Assembly: GCA_965242965.1 (NCBI GenBank)
Contig: OZ251518.1
Coordinates: 288,001-352,000, forward strand
Source: Candidatus Poribacteria bacterium
GTDB taxonomy: Bacteria > Poribacteria > WGA-4E > WGA-3G
DNA length: 64,000 nucleotides
Reading direction: 5' to 3'
This document shows, piece by piece, positions 7,533 through 55,572 of the stretch. The position numbers and the translations under genes are program-made. The notes under the pieces are model-generated. The model saw only the letters and a list, made by a program, of their open reading frames with translations, was not told the DNA's origin and did no database searches. The first letter of the stretch is position 1; each line of letters opens with the position of its first letter.

Positions 7533-7797
7533 GAGGGTGTTTCATAACTCCGTTTCGGTAGTTATCCCCCTTGGGGGCTGGCGAATACCGGAAGGCATTG
7601 GGCCCACCTCTGTAGTTCGGGAGCACCCGCTCCCGAACGGGTCAGGATCAGGCGATCCTGACCTATAGGGGTGATGCGGTCTGACACCAAAACGCATGGC
7701 GAGGGACAGGCCCTCGCCCTACGTGAAGGGAAGGCGTTTTTTTCACCGTAGCGCGGGGCCTGTCACCGCGATGTCGAACGAGATATGAAACACTCTC
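7533..7797. mobile_element. MITE-like cassette: 14-bp TIRs, REP cargo, ~10-bp flanking direct repeat
   Basis: GAGGGTGTTTCATA...TATGAAACACTCTC; flanks AATTTAACCT and AACTTAACCT. Confidence 0.75.
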
Positions 7798-11536: not shown

Positions 11537-12382
11537 ATGGTAGAAAATGTTGCAGTGTTAACCCCGTCCTCATTCCGCGCGTGGGTGCGTGCTGTTGTCA
11601 TTGATGAGGCATTCTTTGCCGATAGAGCATCTCTCGCGGCGGTGCTGGCGAGCGGCAAACCCTGCATCTGCGGCAAGCGCGCTAGCACCGACCCGAGTTC
11701 CCCGGAAGAGCCGTTCCGTATTTTTTGGGATGGCTATTGGGACTTTGCGTTCACCTTAGGTGTGCCGGAAGATTCGCTGCTCGCACTGCTTGACTTGTGC
11801 GATGAGGTCGCGCGTCACTTACAGTTGCAAACCGATGTGCCGCTACTGCGGCATCGTTTGAAGGCCATTGAATCGCAGCGGAACATGTCGCCGGTGGGGC
11901 GCAAGGTGCGGCGAAATGGCGGTGATATCGCGATAAACGAGCCTGCACCGTCAATAAAGGTGCGGGATTTATCGGAAGCGGACTTCCGAGCGTTTGTGGA
12001 GAGGCTTGTCAACGGGCCGCTGTTCACTGCCCGTGCCCGGGTTGTGAAAGTGTTGCACACGCTGCCGCCCGTTTGCGCCACGGAGGTGCCGCTGTCCACG
12101 CTGCTCTCGCAGTGCCTCGGTGCCCCCGCGGCGCGGTGTCCGGAGGCGGTGGCAGTCGTTGCGACAGAGATGCCGTTGTTCTCGGCGTTCTTTGCCTTTT
12201 TCGTGGAGCACTTGGCGTTGGAAGTGTTCCTCGAAGAGTATTATTACGACTCCGACGAAGGGTTGGAGCTGCGCGCAGAATTGCTGGAAGAGATAGAACA
12301 CAATCTTGCAGAAAAGAAGGCAGGCAGAACTAAGGCGACTCCCCTGGCAGAGGTGGCGAAAAAGTTCGGGGTAGCGTTGTGA
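11537..12382 (+). CDS. Unusually long putative antitoxin of the RelE toxin (copy 1)
   Basis: Stop overlaps the relE-like start; C-terminal DSDEGLELRAE..TPLAEVAKKFG antitoxin-type tail. Confidence 0.7.
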   Translation: MVENVAVLTPSSFRAWVRAVVIDEAFFADRASLAAVLASGKPCICGKRASTDPSSPEEPFRIFWDGYWDFAFTLGVPEDSLLALLDLCDEVARHLQLQTDVPLLRHRLKAIESQRNMSPVGRKVRRNGGDIAINEPAPSIKVRDLSEADFRAFVERLVNGPLFTARARVVKVLHTLPPVCATEVPLSTLLSQCLGAPAARCPEAVAVVATEMPLFSAFFAFFVEHLALEVFLEEYYYDSDEGLELRAELLEEIEHNLAEKKAGRTKATPLAEVAKKFGVAL

Positions 12383-12642
12383 TGTATGCGCTAGAACTTG
12401 AACCTCGTGCCGAATCTGATTTGAAGCGGTTAGACGCGACGATACGGAAACGGATTTTTCAAAGTTTGGCAGATTTGTGCGAGACCTGCGAGACACGCCC
12501 ACACTATGCACTGCGTGGGCCCCATCGGGGTAAATTCCGTATCGTCGTGGCGAGAGTCTATCGCGTCATCTATACTTTTGATAAGTCAAGTCGGGAAGTA
12601 ACCGTTCATCGCATTCGGCACCGAAGCCGCGCCTATGATTAA
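12379..12642 (+). CDS. RelE/ParE-family toxin (copy 1)
   Basis: 87 aa, basic; AESDLKRLD, FRIVV, YRVIY and IRHRSRAY motifs. Confidence 0.9.
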   Translation: MMYALELEPRAESDLKRLDATIRKRIFQSLADLCETCETRPHYALRGPHRGKFRIVVARVYRVIYTFDKSSREVTVHRIRHRSRAYD

Positions 12643-12742
12643 CCGCGAAACCGAACTTCAATAGGACTTACGCAGTCCTAACTGCGTTGAAAGGTATCAT
12701 AATTGGGTATCGCATATTTCATAATAGTTTAAGGAGGCTCAG

Positions 12743-13585
12743 ATGATAGAAAATGTTGCAGCGTTAACCCCGTCCTCATTCCGCGCGTGGGTGCGTTCCG
12801 TTGTCGTTGATGAGGCATTCTTCGCGGATAGGGCATCTCTGGCTGCGGTGCTGGCGAGCGGCAAACCTTGTATCTGCGGCAAGCGCGCCAGCACCGACCC
12901 GAGTTCCCCCGAAGAGCCGTTCCGTATTTTTTGGGATGGCTACTGGGACTTTGCGTTCACCTTAGGTGTGCCGGAAGATTCACTGCTCGCGCTGCTTGAC
13001 TTGTGCGCTGAGGTCTCGCGTCACTTACAGTTGCAAACTGATGTGCCGCTATTGCTGCATCGTTTGAAGGCCATTGAATCGCAGCGGAAAATGTCGCCGG
13101 TGGGACGCAAGGTGCGGCAAAACGGGGGTGACATCGCGATAAACGAGCCGGCACCGTCAATAAAGGTGCGGGATTTATCAGAGGGGGATTTCCGGGTGTT
13201 TGTGGAGACGCTTGTCAACGGGCCGCTGTTCACTGCCCGCGACCGGGTTGTGAAAGTGTTGGACACGCTGCCGCCGGTTTGCACCACGGAGGTGCCGCTG
13301 TCCACGCTGCTCTCGCAGTGCCTGGGTGCCCCTGCGGCGCGCTGCCCAGAGGCAGTGGCATTCATTGCGACAGAGATGCCGTTGTTCTCGGCGTTCTTTG
13401 CCTTCTTCGTGGAGCACTTGGCGTTGGAGGTGTTCCTCGAAGATTACTACTACGATTCCGACGAAGGGTTGGAGCTGCGCGCAGAATTGCTGGAAGAAAT
13501 AGAGCGAGACATTGAGTATATCAAGGCAGGCGGCAGAACTTATACCCTTGAAGAGGTTTTCGATGAATTGGAGTCGGCACCGTAA
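12743..13585 (+). CDS. Unusually long putative antitoxin (copy 2)
   Basis: Near-identical to 11537..12382 except for the last ~25 aa. Confidence 0.7.
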   Translation: MIENVAALTPSSFRAWVRSVVVDEAFFADRASLAAVLASGKPCICGKRASTDPSSPEEPFRIFWDGYWDFAFTLGVPEDSLLALLDLCAEVSRHLQLQTDVPLLLHRLKAIESQRKMSPVGRKVRQNGGDIAINEPAPSIKVRDLSEGDFRVFVETLVNGPLFTARDRVVKVLDTLPPVCTTEVPLSTLLSQCLGAPAARCPEAVAFIATEMPLFSAFFAFFVEHLALEVFLEDYYYDSDEGLELRAELLEEIERDIEYIKAGGRTYTLEEVFDELESAP

Positions 13586-13845
13586 TGTATACGTTGGAGT
13601 TGCTCCCAGCTGCCAGAAGGGATATTCGACGCTTGGATGGCACTATCCGCGCCCGCGTCCGCGATGCCCTTGATAAGTTGTGCGCAACTTGCGACACGCG
13701 TCCGCACGAAGCACTCCGCGGACCGCATCGCGGCAAATTTCGCATAAAAGTAGCGAGGCACTATCGTGTCATTTATCGCTTTGACAAGTCAATCCGAGTC
13801 GTTACCGTTCATCGCGTTCGTCACCGAAGCCGCGCCTATGATTAA
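13585..13845 (+). CDS. RelE/ParE-family toxin (copy 2)
   Basis: Paralogue of 12379..12642; TAATG stop-start overlap. Confidence 0.9.
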   Translation: MYTLELLPAARRDIRRLDGTIRARVRDALDKLCATCDTRPHEALRGPHRGKFRIKVARHYRVIYRFDKSIRVVTVHRVRHRSRAYD

Positions 13846-13846
13846 C

Positions 13847-14233
13847 AAGGGGGTTTCATATATTGATGTTTTCCCGGTAGGAGAGACCAGGAGGTCTCTC
13901 CTACCGGAAGGCGTTGGGCCCACCTCTGTAGTTTGTGATCGCCAGATCACAAACGGGTCAGGATCAGGCGATCTTGACCTACAGGGGTGATGCGGTTTGC
14001 CAGCAAAACGCATGGCGAGGGACAGGCCCTCGCCCTACGGGAAGGGACGGCGTTTTTTTCATCGTAGCGCGGGGGCCTGTCCCCCGCGATCGTTATCGTC
14101 AAGCGGTGGCGTTTTAGGTCCTACGGATCTGCAGAGAACAAAACACGTTTTTTCCCTAGCGCGAGCGATGGCGAGGGACAGGCCCTCGCCCTACGGTAAA
14201 GTACCGTTTTTTTCCCGTTTATGAAATACCCTT
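13847..14233. mobile_element. MITE-like REP cassette with a 7-bp target-site duplication
   Basis: AAGGGGGTTTCATA...TATGAAATACCCTT; GATTAAC at 13840-13846 and 14234-14240; empty paralogous site at 12637-12643. Confidence 0.85.
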
Positions 14234-14260
14234 GATTAACCGCGAAACTGAAAATTGCAT

Positions 14261-14289
14261 TTGACAAAAATCGCGTTGCAAGGTATCAT
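14261..14289 (+). promoter_or_regulatory. Sigma70-type promoter of the methyltransferase
   Basis: TTGACA-17 nt-TATCAT. Confidence 0.7.
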
Positions 14290-14307: not shown

Positions 14308-14376
14308 GAGCAGGATTTCCACGATTTCCAGCAGGATTTTCGGGATTTCCAACAGGATTTCCACGATTTCTAAGAT
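14308..14376. repeat. Short-period (C)AGGATTT / ACGATTT repeat tract in the methyltransferase leader
   Basis: gagcaggatttccacgatttccagcaggattttcgggatttccaacaggatttccacgattt. Confidence 0.75.
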
Positions 14377-14415
14377 GATACCAAAACGCTTGTTTCTGCC
14401 GATGAGATAACTTTT

Positions 14416-17400
14416 ATGCAATTTAATGTCAACCAAACACGCAACTATCTCCAAGAATCCGAGTTTGAACCCCTCTTCGTTGAGGAACTCGGATGGGAGT
14501 ATCATACGCAGGCTTTCAGCGTGACGGTAGATGACACCAAATACGCACTCGCCGCTATCGCCGAGAAACGCGGCATGGTGGTATTCCGCTGCACCGCCAC
14601 CGATGGAAAACCGATGCCGAACTACGCCACGCGGCGCGCCATCCAACGGCAGGTGGCGAAATCGGTGCACGAACACGTTATCATTTATACCGACGCGGCG
14701 AAAACTACCCAAGTCTGGCAGTGGGTCAGACGCGAACAAGGAAGACCCGAGGCTTGCCGCGAACACCGCTATCATCACGAACAGGCCGGCGACGCACTCC
14801 TCCAAAAATTGCAAACCCTTGCGTTTAGCTTGGAGGAGGAAGAAGGCGTGTCAATCGTTGATGTTACGGGACGCGTCCGTGCCGCCTTTGACGTGACACC
14901 CGTCACCAAACGCTTTTATGAACGCTTCAAAAAGGAACACGAAGCCTTCCTTCAGTTCCTCAACGGCATCCCCGATATAGAGACGCAAGAGTCGTATGTC
15001 TCTGTCATGCTCAATCGGCTGATGTTTATCTACTTCATCCAGAAGAAGGGGTTTCTTAACGGCGATACCGATTATCTCCGCACGAACCTCAACCGCAGCC
15101 AAACCGAAGGCACCGACAGGTTCTATCAAGAGTTCCTCTGTCCTCTCTTTTTTGAGGGCTTCGCGAAACCGAAACCCGAACGCACCGCGGCGATAAACCA
15201 ACGCCTCGGCGAGGTGCCTTATCTCAACGGCGGCATCTTCCAACACCATCGCATTGAGCAACAGCACGGCGAAACTCTCCACATCCCCGATAAAGCGTTT
15301 GACCGGCTCTTCACGTTCTTTGAGCAGTATCAGTGGCACCTCGATGAACGGCCGCTCCGCAACGATAACGAAATCAACCCCGATGTCCTCGGCTATATCT
15401 TCGAGAAATATGTGAATGAACGGCAGAAAATGGGCGCATATTATACCCCAGAGGACATCACCAAGTATATCAGCCAGAACACGATCATCCCGTTCCTTTT
15501 CGACGCGGCGCGCGAGGCTTGCAAAATCGCTTTTGAAGGCGATGCCACCGTCTGGCAGCTGCTTCAAACTGACCCGGGCCGGTATATTTACGATGCCGTT
15601 AAAAAGGGTGTTAAACAACCCTTACCGCCAAAAATCGCCATCGGCATTGACGATGTCTCCAAACGCACCGCATGGAATACCCGCGCGTCAGCGGAATACA
15701 CATTGCCGACAGAAATCTGGCGGGAAGTCGTCGCGCGGCGGCAGCGTTACGAACGCGTGCATGCCAAATTGGTAAACGGCGAGATTACCGACATCAACGC
15801 GCTCATCACCGAAAACCTTGACATCCAGCAATTCGCGCAAGATGTCATCGAGACATGCGAAGGGCCAGACCTGCTCCGCGCGTTTTGGCATGCCATCACG
15901 CAGGTCACCGTCCTCGATCCGACGTGTGGTTCCGGTGCATTCCTCTTCGCCGCCTTGAATATCCTAGAGCCCCTCTACGATGCATGTCTTGAACGGATGC
16001 AAGCGTTTATTGACGAAGCAGATGCTTCCAGTAGGAGAGACCTCCCGGGCTCGATGAGAACCGACCTCCCGAACGGGTCAGGATCAGGCGATCCTGAACT
16101 ACAGAGTAGGAGAGACCTCCCGGTCTCGACATTTTCCGGTAGGAGAGACCTCCCGGTTTCGAACTCACCTCCCCACGCGCGCTACACCGACTTCCGCGAC
16201 ATCCTCGCACGCACCGCGCAACACCCGAGCCCCCGTTACTTCATCCTCAAATCCATCGTCATCAACAACCTCTATGGCGTGGATATTATGGACGAAGCCG
16301 CCGAGATTTGCAAACTCCGTCTCTTCCTCAAAATGGTGGCGCAGATCGATGACGTGAACCAGATCGAACCGCTGCCAGACATTGACTTCAACGTGCAGGC
16401 AGGCAACACCCTCGTCGGATACACCACCCTTAACGAGGTAGAAAAGGCAGTCACCGGACAGTTCGATTTTGACGACACGATGGCGCGCATCCGCGAACGC
16501 GCCGAGGACGTTGACGCGCTCTTTTCCCTGTTTCGTCAGCAACAGACAGAACTGGGCGGCGATGTAACGCTTGACGACAAACAGGCGTTGCAAGGAAAAC
16601 TGGCGGCGTTATCCGATGAACTGAACGGCTACCTTGCGGGGGAATACGGTGTGGAGACGAACAACGTCGAGGCGTTTCAGCAGTGGCTTTCGTCGCATCA
16701 GCCGTTCCACTGGTTCATCGCGTTTTACGGTATCCTTGACAAAGGTGGGTTTGACGTGATTATCGGGAATCCGCCGTATGTGGAATATAGCAAGGTGAAG
16801 AAGGATTACACGATTCGCGGGTATGAGACAGAGAGTTGCGGTAATCTCTACGCGTTTTCAACCGAAAGAAGTTTGAGACTTCTTAACAACTCAAGCAGTT
16901 TCGGTCTCATCGTTCCGATGAGCCTAGTCTGCAATCAGAGAATGGAAACGCTGCAAGAAATCACTCGGTCATCAAAGTCGGTCTGGCTGAGTAATTTCTC
17001 CGAAAGACCTAGTAAACTCTTCGTTGGTGCTGAAGTTCTTTTAACAATCCTGCTGAGTAGATCGGATCGGAAAGCCGAACAGATCCTTGCTACAACTGGG
17101 TTGACAAAGTGGACTAGCGAGGAACGAAAGGGTCTCTTTCATAATATCGCTTACCATTCCGGCGCGGATAAAATTAATCCGCATGTAATTCCAAAACTTC
17201 GCTCAAATGCGGAGTCCCGTATCCTCGAAAAATTGTCTTCCCAGACAGGATATCTGCGGAATCATCTATTGAAACATTCCGAGAACTCCATCTACTATCG
17301 CACTAGTGGTGGGCGATATTGGAAGGTGTTTACAGATTTCCCACCGGTGTTTAAGGTTAATGGCAAGTCAGAACCTTCTACTGCCGAAAAGTTATTGAGT

Positions 17401-17787
17401 GTTAAAGCTCCCGAAATATTGAAACCTATCATTGCAGTTTTGAGCAGTAATCTGTTTTGGTGGTGGTACACGATTACGACAGACTCTCGAAATCTTCCCG
17501 TGTATGCTATTCAGGATTTCCCTGTGCCTCAGTCTGCGCTGGAGGATCCTGAACTTGCAAGACTCGGCGAGGTGTATTTGGCGGACCTGCGTCGCAACAG
17601 TGAAATGAAGGTTCGCGAACAAAAGTCGAAAGGCAAAACCGAAACGCAGACGTTCAAGATCCAAAAGTCCAAACCGATTATTGACGAGATTGATCGGGTG
17701 CTTGCGGAACATTATGGTTTCACGGATGAGGAGTTGGACTTCATCATCAACTACGACATCAAATATCGGATGGGGCTCGGTGGTTGA
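14416..17787 (+). CDS. N6-adenine DNA methyltransferase, Eco57I/type IIG-like, with a C-terminal target-recognition region
   Basis: YLNGGIF, DVLGYIFEKY, GAYYTP, DPTCGSGAF (motif I) and IGNPPY (motif IV). Confidence 0.92.
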   Translation: MQFNVNQTRNYLQESEFEPLFVEELGWEYHTQAFSVTVDDTKYALAAIAEKRGMVVFRCTATDGKPMPNYATRRAIQRQVAKSVHEHVIIYTDAAKTTQVWQWVRREQGRPEACREHRYHHEQAGDALLQKLQTLAFSLEEEEGVSIVDVTGRVRAAFDVTPVTKRFYERFKKEHEAFLQFLNGIPDIETQESYVSVMLNRLMFIYFIQKKGFLNGDTDYLRTNLNRSQTEGTDRFYQEFLCPLFFEGFAKPKPERTAAINQRLGEVPYLNGGIFQHHRIEQQHGETLHIPDKAFDRLFTFFEQYQWHLDERPLRNDNEINPDVLGYIFEKYVNERQKMGAYYTPEDITKYISQNTIIPFLFDAAREACKIAFEGDATVWQLLQTDPGRYIYDAVKKGVKQPLPPKIAIGIDDVSKRTAWNTRASAEYTLPTEIWREVVARRQRYERVHAKLVNGEITDINALITENLDIQQFAQDVIETCEGPDLLRAFWHAITQVTVLDPTCGSGAFLFAALNILEPLYDACLERMQAFIDEADASSRRDLPGSMRTDLPNGSGSGDPELQSRRDLPVSTFSGRRDLPVSNSPPHARYTDFRDILARTAQHPSPRYFILKSIVINNLYGVDIMDEAAEICKLRLFLKMVAQIDDVNQIEPLPDIDFNVQAGNTLVGYTTLNEVEKAVTGQFDFDDTMARIRERAEDVDALFSLFRQQQTELGGDVTLDDKQALQGKLAALSDELNGYLAGEYGVETNNVEAFQQWLSSHQPFHWFIAFYGILDKGGFDVIIGNPPYVEYSKVKKDYTIRGYETESCGNLYAFSTERSLRLLNNSSSFGLIVPMSLVCNQRMETLQEITRSSKSVWLSNFSERPSKLFVGAEVLLTILLSRSDRKAEQILATTGLTKWTSEERKGLFHNIAYHSGADKINPHVIPKLRSNAESRILEKLSSQTGYLRNHLLKHSENSIYYRTSGGRYWKVFTDFPPVFKVNGKSEPSTAEKLLSVKAPEILKPIIAVLSSNLFWWWYTITTDSRNLPVYAIQDFPVPQSALEDPELARLGEVYLADLRRNSEMKVREQKSKGKTETQTFKIQKSKPIIDEIDRVLAEHYGFTDEELDFIINYDIKYRMGLGG
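16031..16162. repeat. In-frame REP insertion in the methyltransferase
   Basis: Three GTAGGAGAGACCTCCCGG copies plus one GGTCAGGATCAGGCGATCCTGAACTAC. Confidence 0.9.
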
Positions 17788-21149: not shown

Positions 21150-21429
21150 AAGGGTGTTTCATAACTCCGTTTCGGTAACTATCCCCCCTTGGGAGGCGCG
21201 CATCGGGCCCATCTCTGTAGTTCGGGATCGCCTGATCCCGAACGGGTCAAGAGCAGGCGATCTTGACCTACAGGGGTGACGCGGTCTGCCAGCAAAACGA
21301 TGGCGAGGGAAACCCGCTCGCATGCGCGTGTGGCATGCGAGGGCCCTCGCCCTACGTAAAGGGGAGTCGTTTTTTTCACCGAGCGCGTGACCTGTCACCG
21401 CAACGTTGAGCGATTTATGAAACACCCTG
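21150..21429. mobile_element. MITE-like REP cassette with an 11-bp target-site duplication
   Basis: AAGGGTGTTTCATA...TATGAAACACCCTG; AAAATATAAAT at 21139-21149 and 21430-21440; interior colinear with 7533-7797. Confidence 0.85.
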
Positions 21430-54141: not shown

Positions 54142-55572
54142 TTAAAAGTTGGCGAGGCGGGTTTGCAATTCTTCGGTTTGGACGGGCCGCGTGAAGTCCA
54201 TCAGATAAATCCGCATGTGATCACTCCGGTCGGAGCTGAACACCAGTTTTTTGCCGTCTCGTGACAGACTTGGTTCAAAATGCGCGCCGATGTGGTTCGT
54301 GAGTTGGATTTTGCGCGTGCCATCGGCGTTCATTATCCAGAGGGTATAGTGTCCGTGCGCGTTTGAGATGTAAATGATGCGCGTGCCATCCGGCGTGAAA
54401 ATCGGCTGATAATGGCTATTTGATGCCGCGGTGAGTTGTTTCACGTCGCCATCTTTCGCGCCATTTTTCACACTGAGAATGCAGAGTTGGTAGGCATCCT
54501 CCACGCTGGAAATGAAAGCAATCTGATTGCCATTGGGAGCCCACGCGGGATGCCCATCGTCAACTTCGTTGTCGGTGAGTTGCACTTTACCGGTGCCGTC
54601 TGTATTGACAACGTAGATTTCCAATTCATCGCTATTTTCGTTGGATTCAAAGGCGATTTTCTTTCCATCGGGTGAAAAGGCGGGGGCACTTTGCATCCCC
54701 TGCATTTCAACGAGGGGTCTTTGGTGTCGGCCATCAACTTCCATCAGATAGATTTTGGCGGTGCTTGGCACGGAGCCGCTTGCCTGAATCGGTGGCAGCA
54801 TCATCATCCCTTTGGTGCGTTCTGCAACGAAGGCAAGCGTCTTGCCATCGGGTGAAAAAGTAGGCATGTATTCGTCAAATTCTTCGGTGTGCGTGAGTTG
54901 CCGGAGTTCGCGCGTCTCTAAGTTCATCAGGTAAATCTCCCCGTTTTGAAGCCGATATGAGGCGAACGCGAGCCATTTCCCATCAGGCGAAATCGCCGGA
55001 CTGTAATCGTCGGTATATTTCGCCGTGAACGTCATGATATTGCCCTTTTCAGTGAAGGCTTGCTCGTAGTCGTCACTGCCTTCGGTACGGAGGCGTTGGA
55101 CGTGATACGCATCACCGGTGAGCCCCGCCAATTGCACAAGCACATCGGAATTCGGGGAACCGGAAGTTAGCAGGCGATGGAACTGCTCGTGTGCCAATTG
55201 CCGCTGATTCCCAAACCAATAGACGCGCCCAAGTGCGAACCTGACATCAGCTCGCTTCGGCGCGAGGCGCAACGCATTCTGAAACGCCTTAATAGCCTGC
55301 GCGTCTTCTCTTAACTGCGCATAGACGAGGCCGAGTTGATAGTATGCCTCGGCGTTAGAAGGCGCGCGTTGAAGCGTCTCCTCAAATTGGCGGACCGCGG
55401 CGGCAGTATCGCCTGTTGCGGCGAGCTGCTTACCGCGCTTAATACCCGGGTCTTCGCCGCATCCAAAGATGAGCAGGATTTGCAAGATTAGCACGATTTC
55501 CAGGATTATAGGAAATCGGGTATTGACGGTTTTCCCGGAGGCCGGGAGAGTAATGAAATGTGGCATTTTCAT
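54142..55572 (-). CDS. Putative lipoprotein with TPRs and a TolB-like (PD40) beta-propeller
   Basis: IFG-C lipobox; AYYQLG TPR; repeated P-x-F-SPDGK. Confidence 0.85.
   Translation of the reverse strand: MKMPHFITLPASGKTVNTRFPIILEIVLILQILLIFGCGEDPGIKRGKQLAATGDTAAAVRQFEETLQRAPSNAEAYYQLGLVYAQLREDAQAIKAFQNALRLAPKRADVRFALGRVYWFGNQRQLAHEQFHRLLTSGSPNSDVLVQLAGLTGDAYHVQRLRTEGSDDYEQAFTEKGNIMTFTAKYTDDYSPAISPDGKWLAFASYRLQNGEIYLMNLETRELRQLTHTEEFDEYMPTFSPDGKTLAFVAERTKGMMMLPPIQASGSVPSTAKIYLMEVDGRHQRPLVEMQGMQSAPAFSPDGKKIAFESNENSDELEIYVVNTDGTGKVQLTDNEVDDGHPAWAPNGNQIAFISSVEDAYQLCILSVKNGAKDGDVKQLTAASNSHYQPIFTPDGTRIIYISNAHGHYTLWIMNADGTRKIQLTNHIGAHFEPSLSRDGKKLVFSSDRSDHMRIYLMDFTRPVQTEELQTRLANF

Follow-up and report, generated by a model that had tools for sequence, protein, structure and literature searches.

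A miniature inverted-repeat element carrying GTAG palindromes beside a duplicated toxin gene in a Candidatus Poribacteria genome

We analysed a stretch of 64,000 nt from a Candidatus Poribacteria bacterium (assembly GCA_965242965.1, contig OZ251518.1, positions 288,001 to 352,000; hereafter the window, to whose first letter bare coordinates refer) and focused on a 387-bp insert directly downstream of a toxin gene. The genome of the window (G000) comprises 5.70 Mb in 2 contigs and is 94.66% complete. A two-gene cassette occurs there twice in tandem (11537–12642 and 12743–13845; 92% identity over 773 bp), and each copy ends in a gene for a ParE/RelE-superfamily toxin on the plus strand: paralogue 1 at 12379–12642 (PF05016, 41.9 bits) and paralogue 2 at 13585–13845 (PF05016 ParE_toxin, 42.6 bits). 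Downstream of paralogue 1 the sequence reads ...gcctat-GATTAAC-cgcgaaac, with a single, uninterrupted GATTAAC at 12637–12643. At paralogue 2, GATTAAC is present twice (13840–13846 and 14234–14240), and between the two copies lies the insert (13847–14233), bounded by terminal inverted repeats (TIRs). The toxin reading frame ends ...GAT TAA; its stop codon (13843–13845) is thus part of the duplicated word, and the insert begins 1 nt past it. Both the filled site and the empty paralogous site were as described in an earlier note on this DNA.

The left TIR (AAGGGGGTTTCATA, 13847–13860, plus strand) and the right TIR (TATGAAATACCCTT, 14220–14233, minus strand) are imperfect, being complementary at 12 of 14 positions (87% over 15 nt), and each carries two mismatches to the consensus of the family described below (GAGGGTGTTTCATA). 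A duplication of 8 bp, TGATTAAC (13839–13846 and 14233–14240, with the empty site at 12636–12643), fits equally well because a T precedes GATTAAC in all three places; under this reading the right TIR is shorter by one base. The TIRs, the duplication and the match to the family mark the insert as a non-autonomous MITE (a transposable element of the miniature inverted-repeat type). It holds no credible open reading frame (ORF), the only frames of at least 40 aa being ones that run through palindromes. Folded as single-stranded DNA, the insert reaches −110.7 kcal/mol (z = −11.1, 100 shuffles). The left junction is crossed without mismatch by a public contig of 97 nt (13786–13882), whose run is possibly the source sample and which is therefore not independent. 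Public short-read contigs break within the repeat, and among the listed pieces of four runs none spans the whole stretch. Two further alignments were not counted as evidence: one contig (X5) aligns from exactly 14233 onward, preceded by 35 unaligned letters, and may represent an empty allele in related strains, and contigs from three other public runs end at 13833. By consensus match only, and with no functional claim, weak terminator-like hairpins lie within the insert and a strong sigma-70-like site lies just 3′ of it (14261–14289).

The interior is rich in hairpins tagged with GTAG, of the kind known as repetitive extragenic palindromes (REPs). Five perfect hairpins and one imperfect one were present; they cover ∼168 of the 387 bp, so that the earlier note's wording of an insert filled only with GTAG palindromes went too far, the remainder being spacer that is conserved across the family. 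From left to right, hairpin A (13874–13907; stem 15, loop 4) has GTAG on both arms, and two family copies that are collinear elsewhere differ by a 40-bp indel consisting of an A-type REP. It is followed by a doublet (13926–13984) that resembles a REPIN (REP doublet forming a hairpin) and consists of CTGTAG, a hairpin (13931–13954), an imperfect hairpin and CTACAG; the type of the left half of this B-C doublet also flanks the gene for a REP-associated tyrosine transposase (RAYT) described below. Hairpin D (14014–14038, minus strand) has a GGCGAGGG stem followed by CTAC and belongs to a class with 1495 perfect genome copies, while hairpin E (14064–14088, plus strand), GTAG followed by a CGCGGGGG stem, represents a class of 1639 perfect copies. 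A second D-type hairpin (14170–14194, minus strand) sits in a right-hand segment that canonical copies of the family lack. Element positions 56–248 (∼190 bp) match the interiors of dozens of canonical copies at 85–92%; beyond this core, the 387-bp element has the extra A-type REP on the left and ∼110 extra bases with the second D-type REP on the right.

Genome-wide, the TIRs define an abundant family. The 13-nt TIR core was found 582, 931 and 1080 times at 0, 1 and 2 mismatches, compared with 0, 0 and 47 times for its reversed control, and among the end variants 530 of the 719 collected ends read GAGGGTGTTTCATA. Adjacent plus- and minus-strand TIRs formed 375 pairs. Of these, 308 are closer than 1500 bp, with variable end types, lengths from ∼70 to 960 bp and a modal length of 250–300 bp. 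The earlier note had called for flanking duplications to be tabulated at such pairs, and they are indeed enriched: an exact direct repeat of at least 7 bp flanks 139 of the 308 pairs (45%), as against 4, 3 and 2 of ∼308 (∼1%) in three shuffled pairings. In the commonest class, 8 bp directly abut the G...C termini. The target consensus is the palindrome A-n-T-T-A-A-n-T, the preferred bases being present in 396, 518, 453, 528, 440 and 577 of 719 flanks at positions −8, −6, −5, −4, −3 and −1, respectively. Family copies have unique flanks in the 2-contig assembly.

Two further complete copies lie in the window, a canonical sibling of 265 bp with the same TIRs and an ordered bundle of four REPs (7533–7797) and a sibling of 280 bp (21150–21429). 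We searched the exact TIR in 40 relatives and in the window's own genome. Its count is 530 in G000, compared with 5 in G001 and 1 in G002, the latter two being sister species of the same genus, and at 2 mismatches the counts in G001 (65 vs 42) and G002 (49 vs 54) are at background level. The burst of the TIR family is therefore specific to G000 among the genomes searched. Besides the pairs, 464 of the 1080 TIR matches genome-wide are unpaired (∼47 are expected by chance); in the window, five solo ends (6255, 44311, 48533, 51362 and 59225) have no partner within 1500 bp.

The question of how REPs came to lie inside these elements can be approached through the family's interiors. A near-full-length partner exists for 137 of the 308 paired elements, and the largest cluster has 76 members of 227–451 bp. 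All 76 share one order: TIR, subterminal region, CTGTAG...CTACAG two-hairpin doublet, GGCGAGGG REP, T-rich spacer, CGCGGGG REP, subterminal region, TIR. Most alignment columns are conserved at 0.9 or above, pairwise identity has a median of 80% and a maximum of 96%, and an exact duplication of at least 7 bp flanks 35 of the 76 copies, whose flanks are otherwise unrelated except for short REP matches. The same four-REP bundle is present in a copy in the sister species G001. At least one perfect GTAG hairpin is found in 283 of the 308 paired elements and none in the other 25. Because 76 copies at different loci and one G001 copy have a single collinear four-REP interior, the sequences indicate that the shell moved REP bundles and that the REPs were copied along with it. 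With the natural canonical copy as query, the genome yielded 736 B-C doublets, 996 D-E doublets and 249 whole B-to-E blocks; 186 of these blocks lie within 500 bp of a TIR and 63 do not. Paired elements make up 2.25% of the genome, and GTAG hairpins are enriched there about seven-fold.

REPs are found throughout the genome. Our scan (stem of at least 8, loop of 3–7) returned 1633 hairpins per Mb vs 77 per Mb in shuffled sequence, and 5310 of the 6910 distinct perfect hairpins on contig C1 of G000 are adjacent to GTAG (about one per kb). The main stem classes are CGCGGGGG (1639 copies) and GGCGAGGG (1495), followed by those resembling TTCGGGAG (508), GTCAGGAT (418) and TTTGTGAT (292). The GGCGAGGG or D-type class is limited to the window's genus, with 1500 copies in G000, 282 in G001, 100 in G002 and 0–1 elsewhere. 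Two Y1_Tnp matches were obtained in G000, one RAYT and one IS605-type remnant. The RAYT (157 aa, G000:C1:3147502–3147972; NF047646 REP_Tyr_transpos, 120.5 bits, cut-off 80) has an intact reading frame and CTGTAG-TTCGGGAGC REPs on both sides, a type that is also found in the canonical element; RAYT homologues are present in 25 of the 41 genomes searched, G000 included. With GTAG palindromes, inverted doublets and a single flanked RAYT gene, the interior units have the sequence-level features of a REP/REPIN-RAYT system, as expected from the earlier assignment of these palindromes to HUH enzymes. The second Y1 match belongs to an IS200/IS605-type remnant (L001, G000:C1:3123891–3127127), a Y1 fragment with two in-frame TGA codons beside an intact TnpB-like ORF of 408 aa. 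Two other repeat types accompany the REPs: in 291 of 456 cases a palindrome of ∼33 nt (stem CTCGGATGC or CTCGCATGC) sits in the loop of a D- or E-type REP as a hairpin within a hairpin, for example in the sibling at 21150–21429, and a non-GTAG family of AAGGTCCTTTAGGTCCTTAA-like palindromes with CTATAGACAT motifs (G000:C1 ∼54400–54700 and other loci) often adjoins REP arrays.

An intact insertion sequence (IS) with the same ends was found in G022, a genome from another genus of the same family. The exact TIR occurs there 14 times, as seven pairs each 1107 bp apart, and all seven copies are identical. Their 8-bp duplications (e.g. AATTATCT, AGATAACT and AATTAATT) are perfect in six of seven cases, with 7 of 8 positions matching in the remaining one, and the targets are TAA-centred with A...T ends, as in the MITE family. 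The IS encodes a 332-aa protein with matches to PF13612 DDE_Tnp_1_3 (39.3 bits, cut-off 27) and PF01609 DDE_Tnp_1 (26.9 bits, cut-off 23). The same 14-nt TIR thus bounds both the MITEs and an IS with a DDE-domain protein, which bears out the earlier proposal that TIRs and duplication reflect DDE transposition. Its size of ∼1.1 kb, its single ORF, its best NCBIfam match (transpos_IS982) and the DDE_Tnp_1_3 domain liken the element to IS982; its termini start GAGGG, unlike those of IS982, which start AC. As its NCBIfam score falls well short of the equivalog cut-off, we file it only as an IS982-like member of the DDE_Tnp_1/IS982-like clan. Homologues of the transposase numbered 1329, the few named ones being from 'Candidatus Poribacteria bacterium'. 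Among the 40 relatives, nine have homologues, and none was found in G001 or G002 of the window's genus. No REPs lie inside the intact IS: the shell ends are common to the genera, and the REP filling is local to the window's genus.

Traces of this IS do persist in G000. Tblastn with the G022 transposase gave only two fragments, at one locus, and the largest ORF clusters near unpaired TIRs (464 ends, 1047 ORFs of at least 180 aa) resembled, by eye, ordinary paralogue families, none of them being transposase-like. At six loci, however, a TIR, the 5′ untranslated region and ∼30 transposase codons are retained, followed by REP arrays (G000:C1 positions 5629918, 539167, 2371746, 4939921 and 2778973 on the minus strand and 1232824 on the plus strand). 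With TIR, untranslated region and codons in place, these remnants document directly that the family descends from the IS. They apparently have a common breakpoint, which points to one ancestral derivative having spread afterwards.

Evidence for mobility comes from siblings of the 387-bp element. The MITE at 21150–21429 is missing from the orthologous sites of both sister species, where the target is present once; the search for empty sites in related genomes that the earlier note had called for thus succeeded for sibling copies, and did not for the 387-bp copy itself. Three larger elements with TIRs as in the MITE family and 8-bp duplications carry whole genes. One of 2902 bp (L030, G000:C1:54311–57212, duplication ATTTAAGT) encodes a 588-aa protein with ankyrin and dockerin domains, and its site is empty in G001 and G002, with one target copy. 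Another of 3920 bp (L035, C1:188873–192792, duplication AATAAATT) encodes a Type ISP restriction-modification-like protein of 1023 aa and has an empty site in G001. The third, of 5454 bp (L031, C1:1404312–1409765, duplication AGGTTATC), encodes a 1392-aa protein with leucine-rich repeat (LRR), Big_1 and dockerin domains and a secretion tail; in G002 its flanks are 18 nt apart, with the last 74 nt on the left unaligned. Across long TIR combinations (1.5–12 kb), an exact repeat of at least 7 bp was found in 6 of 616, about the chance rate. Since this duplication rate is no higher than chance, it is the empty sites of the sister species that make the case for the long elements. As the shell also carries genes of kinds associated with defence and with life in a host, it may matter for the multiplication of such families in the lineage.

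It is tempting, if doubtful, to see in the GAGGGTGTTTCATA shell a general cargo vehicle, ranging from MITEs to mobile insertion cassettes (MICs), that spreads REPINs, eukaryote-like ankyrin and LRR genes and a Type ISP restriction-modification-like gene in a genome lacking the transposase. If this were true, IS copies would have to have entered horizontally, from related members of the same community, and mobilised the shell in trans more than once. By the usual view, REPINs are strictly vertical in inheritance and slow to duplicate; a general vehicle would give them fast, DDE-driven amplification, possibly across genomes.

The insert has every testable defining feature of a MITE, namely TIRs, a duplication of fixed length, small size, no transposase gene, a cognate IS and empty sites in its family. 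Given the observed anatomy, family, duplications, partner IS, RAYT gene and shared REP bundles, we read it as a copy of an abundant MITE family that derives from a DDE_Tnp_1_3/IS982-like IS, whose interior was replaced by host REPs, passively copied, and which is now orphaned; we put the probability of this reading at roughly 0.85. The MITE would be a non-autonomous derivative of the ∼1.1-kb IS that kept only the termini (GAGGGTGTTTCATA), GTAG REP and REPIN-like units native to the host lineage having taken the place of the shell interior. A transposase acting in trans would have cut at the TIRs and inserted the element at an AT-rich target of the AnTTAAnT type, in this case (T)GATTAAC, including the toxin stop codon, with 7–8 bp duplicated, and the insertion probably came later than the tandem duplication of the toxin cassette. 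The internal REPs would then be copied passively with the shell, without functional coupling, while the same REPs, in thousands of free copies and associated with a single RAYT, are also gained and lost within individual MITE copies. The orphan family would move only if a related IS entered the cell.

Several observations weigh against this reading. At the locus itself, no orthologous or allelic empty site for the 387-bp copy was found in G001, G002 or the metagenome: both sister species align only from the downstream gene onward and are without the toxin cassette, and in a metagenome scan the toxin protein matched a single relative, at 32% identity. The empty site is a paralogue, not an allele; moreover, both TIRs of this copy deviate from the consensus (each at 2 of 14 positions), and the clean duplication measures 7 bp where the mode is 8. 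In the family, an exact duplication of at least 7 bp is missing from 169 of the 308 pairs. As for the IS, its protein failed the IS982 equivalog threshold (best NCBIfam match transpos_IS982 NF033520, 55.2 vs 130 bits), and no cognate transposase was found in G000, with 0 matches each for PF13612, PF01609 and, at E ≤ 1e−5, the G022 protein. Because none was found, the shell tier is orphaned there, and the transposase with the same TIR that the earlier note had asked for exists in G022 and was not found in the window's own genome. Regarding the cargo, paired elements hold only 882 of the 5310 REPs (17%) and 2122 (40%) are located no more than 700 bp inward of any TIR; no TIR is present within 500 bp of 279 of the 736 B-C doublets and 558 of the 996 D-E doublets; and REP-sized indels between related MITE copies mean that REP content also changes in place. 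With 60–83% of REPs outside shells, the shell is not the main REP vehicle. The earlier idea of a MITE shell that moves REP bundles as a two-tier system stands as far as the collinear 76-copy bundle is concerned. Free REP doublets, in-place REP indels and the REP-free intact IS nevertheless make the two tiers look largely independent, with passive hitch-hiking rather than a functional coupling of their enzymes.

How the bundles arose can also be explained differently. One alternative is an active, functionally coupled two-tier system in which movement of the shell depends on REPs or RAYT, or REP spread depends on the DDE enzyme, with both tiers still moving. The intact, REP-flanked RAYT frame and the extremely structured interior (z = −11) are in keeping with it, as is the fact that both the REP class (1500 D-type copies vs 282 in G001 and 100 in G002) and the shell (530 TIRs vs 5 and 1) are most expanded in G000. 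We nevertheless consider such coupling quite improbable: a DDE transposase of this clan was not found in G000, most REPs lie outside shells, the copies are old (median pairwise identity 80%), and seven identical copies of a REP-free IS in G022 argue that REPs are not needed for transposition. Highly improbable, too, is colonisation in place only, by which empty MITEs would have spread first and REPs entered each copy independently, with no REP transport by the shell. REPs are certainly ubiquitous, at about one per kb, element lengths (∼70–960 bp) and end types vary, and collinear copies do differ by REP-sized indels such as the 40-bp A-type REP and a 32-bp hairpin in a REP loop. Independent entry is nonetheless hard to reconcile with 76 copies that have identical REP order and orientation and conserved non-REP spacers, with the bundle in a sister-species copy, with a B-to-E block of which 186 of 249 copies lie near a TIR (≤500 bp), or with merely 25 of 308 paired elements being without a perfect GTAG hairpin.

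Two other explanations concern the boundaries of the element. The ends and flanking repeats might have been produced without DDE transposition, by the RAYT, by slippage during replication or by recombination among short AT-rich repeats; the target is indeed AT-rich and of low complexity, chance repeats flank 1–2% of shuffled pairs, and the long TIR combinations have repeats at about the chance rate (6/616). Against this speak the exact duplications in 45% of tight pairs vs ∼1% in shuffles, the clean single-target empty sites in sister species, and an intact IS encoding a DDE-family protein with identical TIR, duplication length and target preference, and we regard a non-DDE origin as barely credible. 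An artefact of assembly, or a resemblance that arose by chance at a single locus, could be suspected from the short-read public contigs that break in the repeat, none of the listed pieces spanning the stretch. The left junction is bridged by the 97-nt zero-mismatch contig, though, the interior matches the family over ∼190 bp, and hundreds of copies with unique flanks exist in a 2-contig assembly, making an artefact a negligible prospect.

The surroundings of the insert have features of their own. Each toxin cassette consists of a 280-aa protein without a Pfam match, unusually large for an antitoxin, followed by the ParE/RelE-type toxin with a stop/start overlap. Downstream of the insert, three tandem 21-bp units (CAGGATTTCCACGATTTCCAG-like, 14311–14379) separate the promoter-like site from the start of an Eco57I/MmeI-type restriction-modification ORF (14416–17787); one public contig is short of one such unit (21 nt at 14351), and AGGATT/CACGATT-rich runs, similar to the 21-bp units, adjoin REP arrays elsewhere. 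Within the restriction-modification ORF, a cluster of GTAG REPs (16030–16175) is in frame and translates as ...RRDLPGS...RRDLPVS.... In a paralogue and in the G001 and G002 orthologues, the length differences at this place are ∼33, 36, 60 and 108 nt, each divisible by three, although these values are approximate owing to imprecise piece ends. The cluster resembles the in-frame palindromic elements of Rickettsia described in part of PMC3733652.

For the comparison with known systems we drew on parts of the papers cited, and the likenesses and differences given here hold for those parts. RUP, NEMIS/Correia, Nezha, ERIC and EFAR (PMC3733652), as well as MITEAba12 (PMC6382973), are bacterial MITEs derived from ISs. 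The 387-bp element shares with them short TIRs, a target duplication, the lack of a transposase gene, many copies, a position next to coding regions and presumed trans-mobilisation by a cognate IS. Unlike in these, its interior consists of ordered host RAYT-type GTAG REPs and REPIN-like doublets rather than an IS remnant, the cognate IS was not found in the same genome, and ∼1000 ends occur in 5.7 Mb. With REPIN-RAYT systems (Bertels and Rainey, PMC3116915; PMC3337134; Nunvar, PMC2817692) it has in common GTAG-tagged hairpins, inverted doublets and a single RAYT flanked by REPs. REPINs as described there have neither a TIR shell nor a target duplication, whereas here two doublets lie inside a DDE element bounded by both and were amplified together. 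The alternating orientation of REPs in mosaics with conserved spacers recalls the bacterial interspersed mosaic elements (BIMEs) of enterobacteria (PMC3184786, PMC2817692); BIMEs have no TIRs and no target duplication, and the 387-bp element, with both, falls outside their definition.

Among small bacterial repeats, REPs/REPINs and MITEs count as distinct classes with different enzymologies (PMC3733652, PMC3189936), and full-text literature searches, which did not cover supplements (PMC3184786, PMC3733652, PMC3189936 and PMC11602168 among the sources), did not turn up any account of REPs filling a DDE-type MITE. That the two classes are here physically nested and co-amplified provides a concrete case of hitch-hiking between mobile elements. 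In addition, the intact IS of a related genus and the orphan MITE family form a ready experimental pair for studying trans-mobilisation and REP expansion. MIC231 of Bacillus cereus is reportedly a mobile insertion cassette. MICs, like MITEs, are IS derivatives without a transposase that can be activated by a cognate one (PMC3129680). The shell resembles them in placing IS-type inverted repeats around passenger DNA, with siblings of 2.9, 3.9 and 5.5 kb carrying whole genes, and differs in that the passenger of the 387-bp element is another class of mobile repeat and not a gene. A composite interior is also known from the minisatellite-containing MITE of Porphyromonas gingivalis (PMC4596501) and from tandem-repeat-containing clam MITEs (PMC3879986), which likewise build it from another sort of repeat whose unit number varies; those are tandem repeats without a transposase of their own, in contrast to the separately mobile, RAYT-associated units found here. 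The locus is thus a clean, testable instance of one mobile DNA nested in another, in a genome very rich in REPs, rather than a new mechanism, and within the literature consulted its nearest parallels are the minisatellite-carrying MITEs and the MICs.

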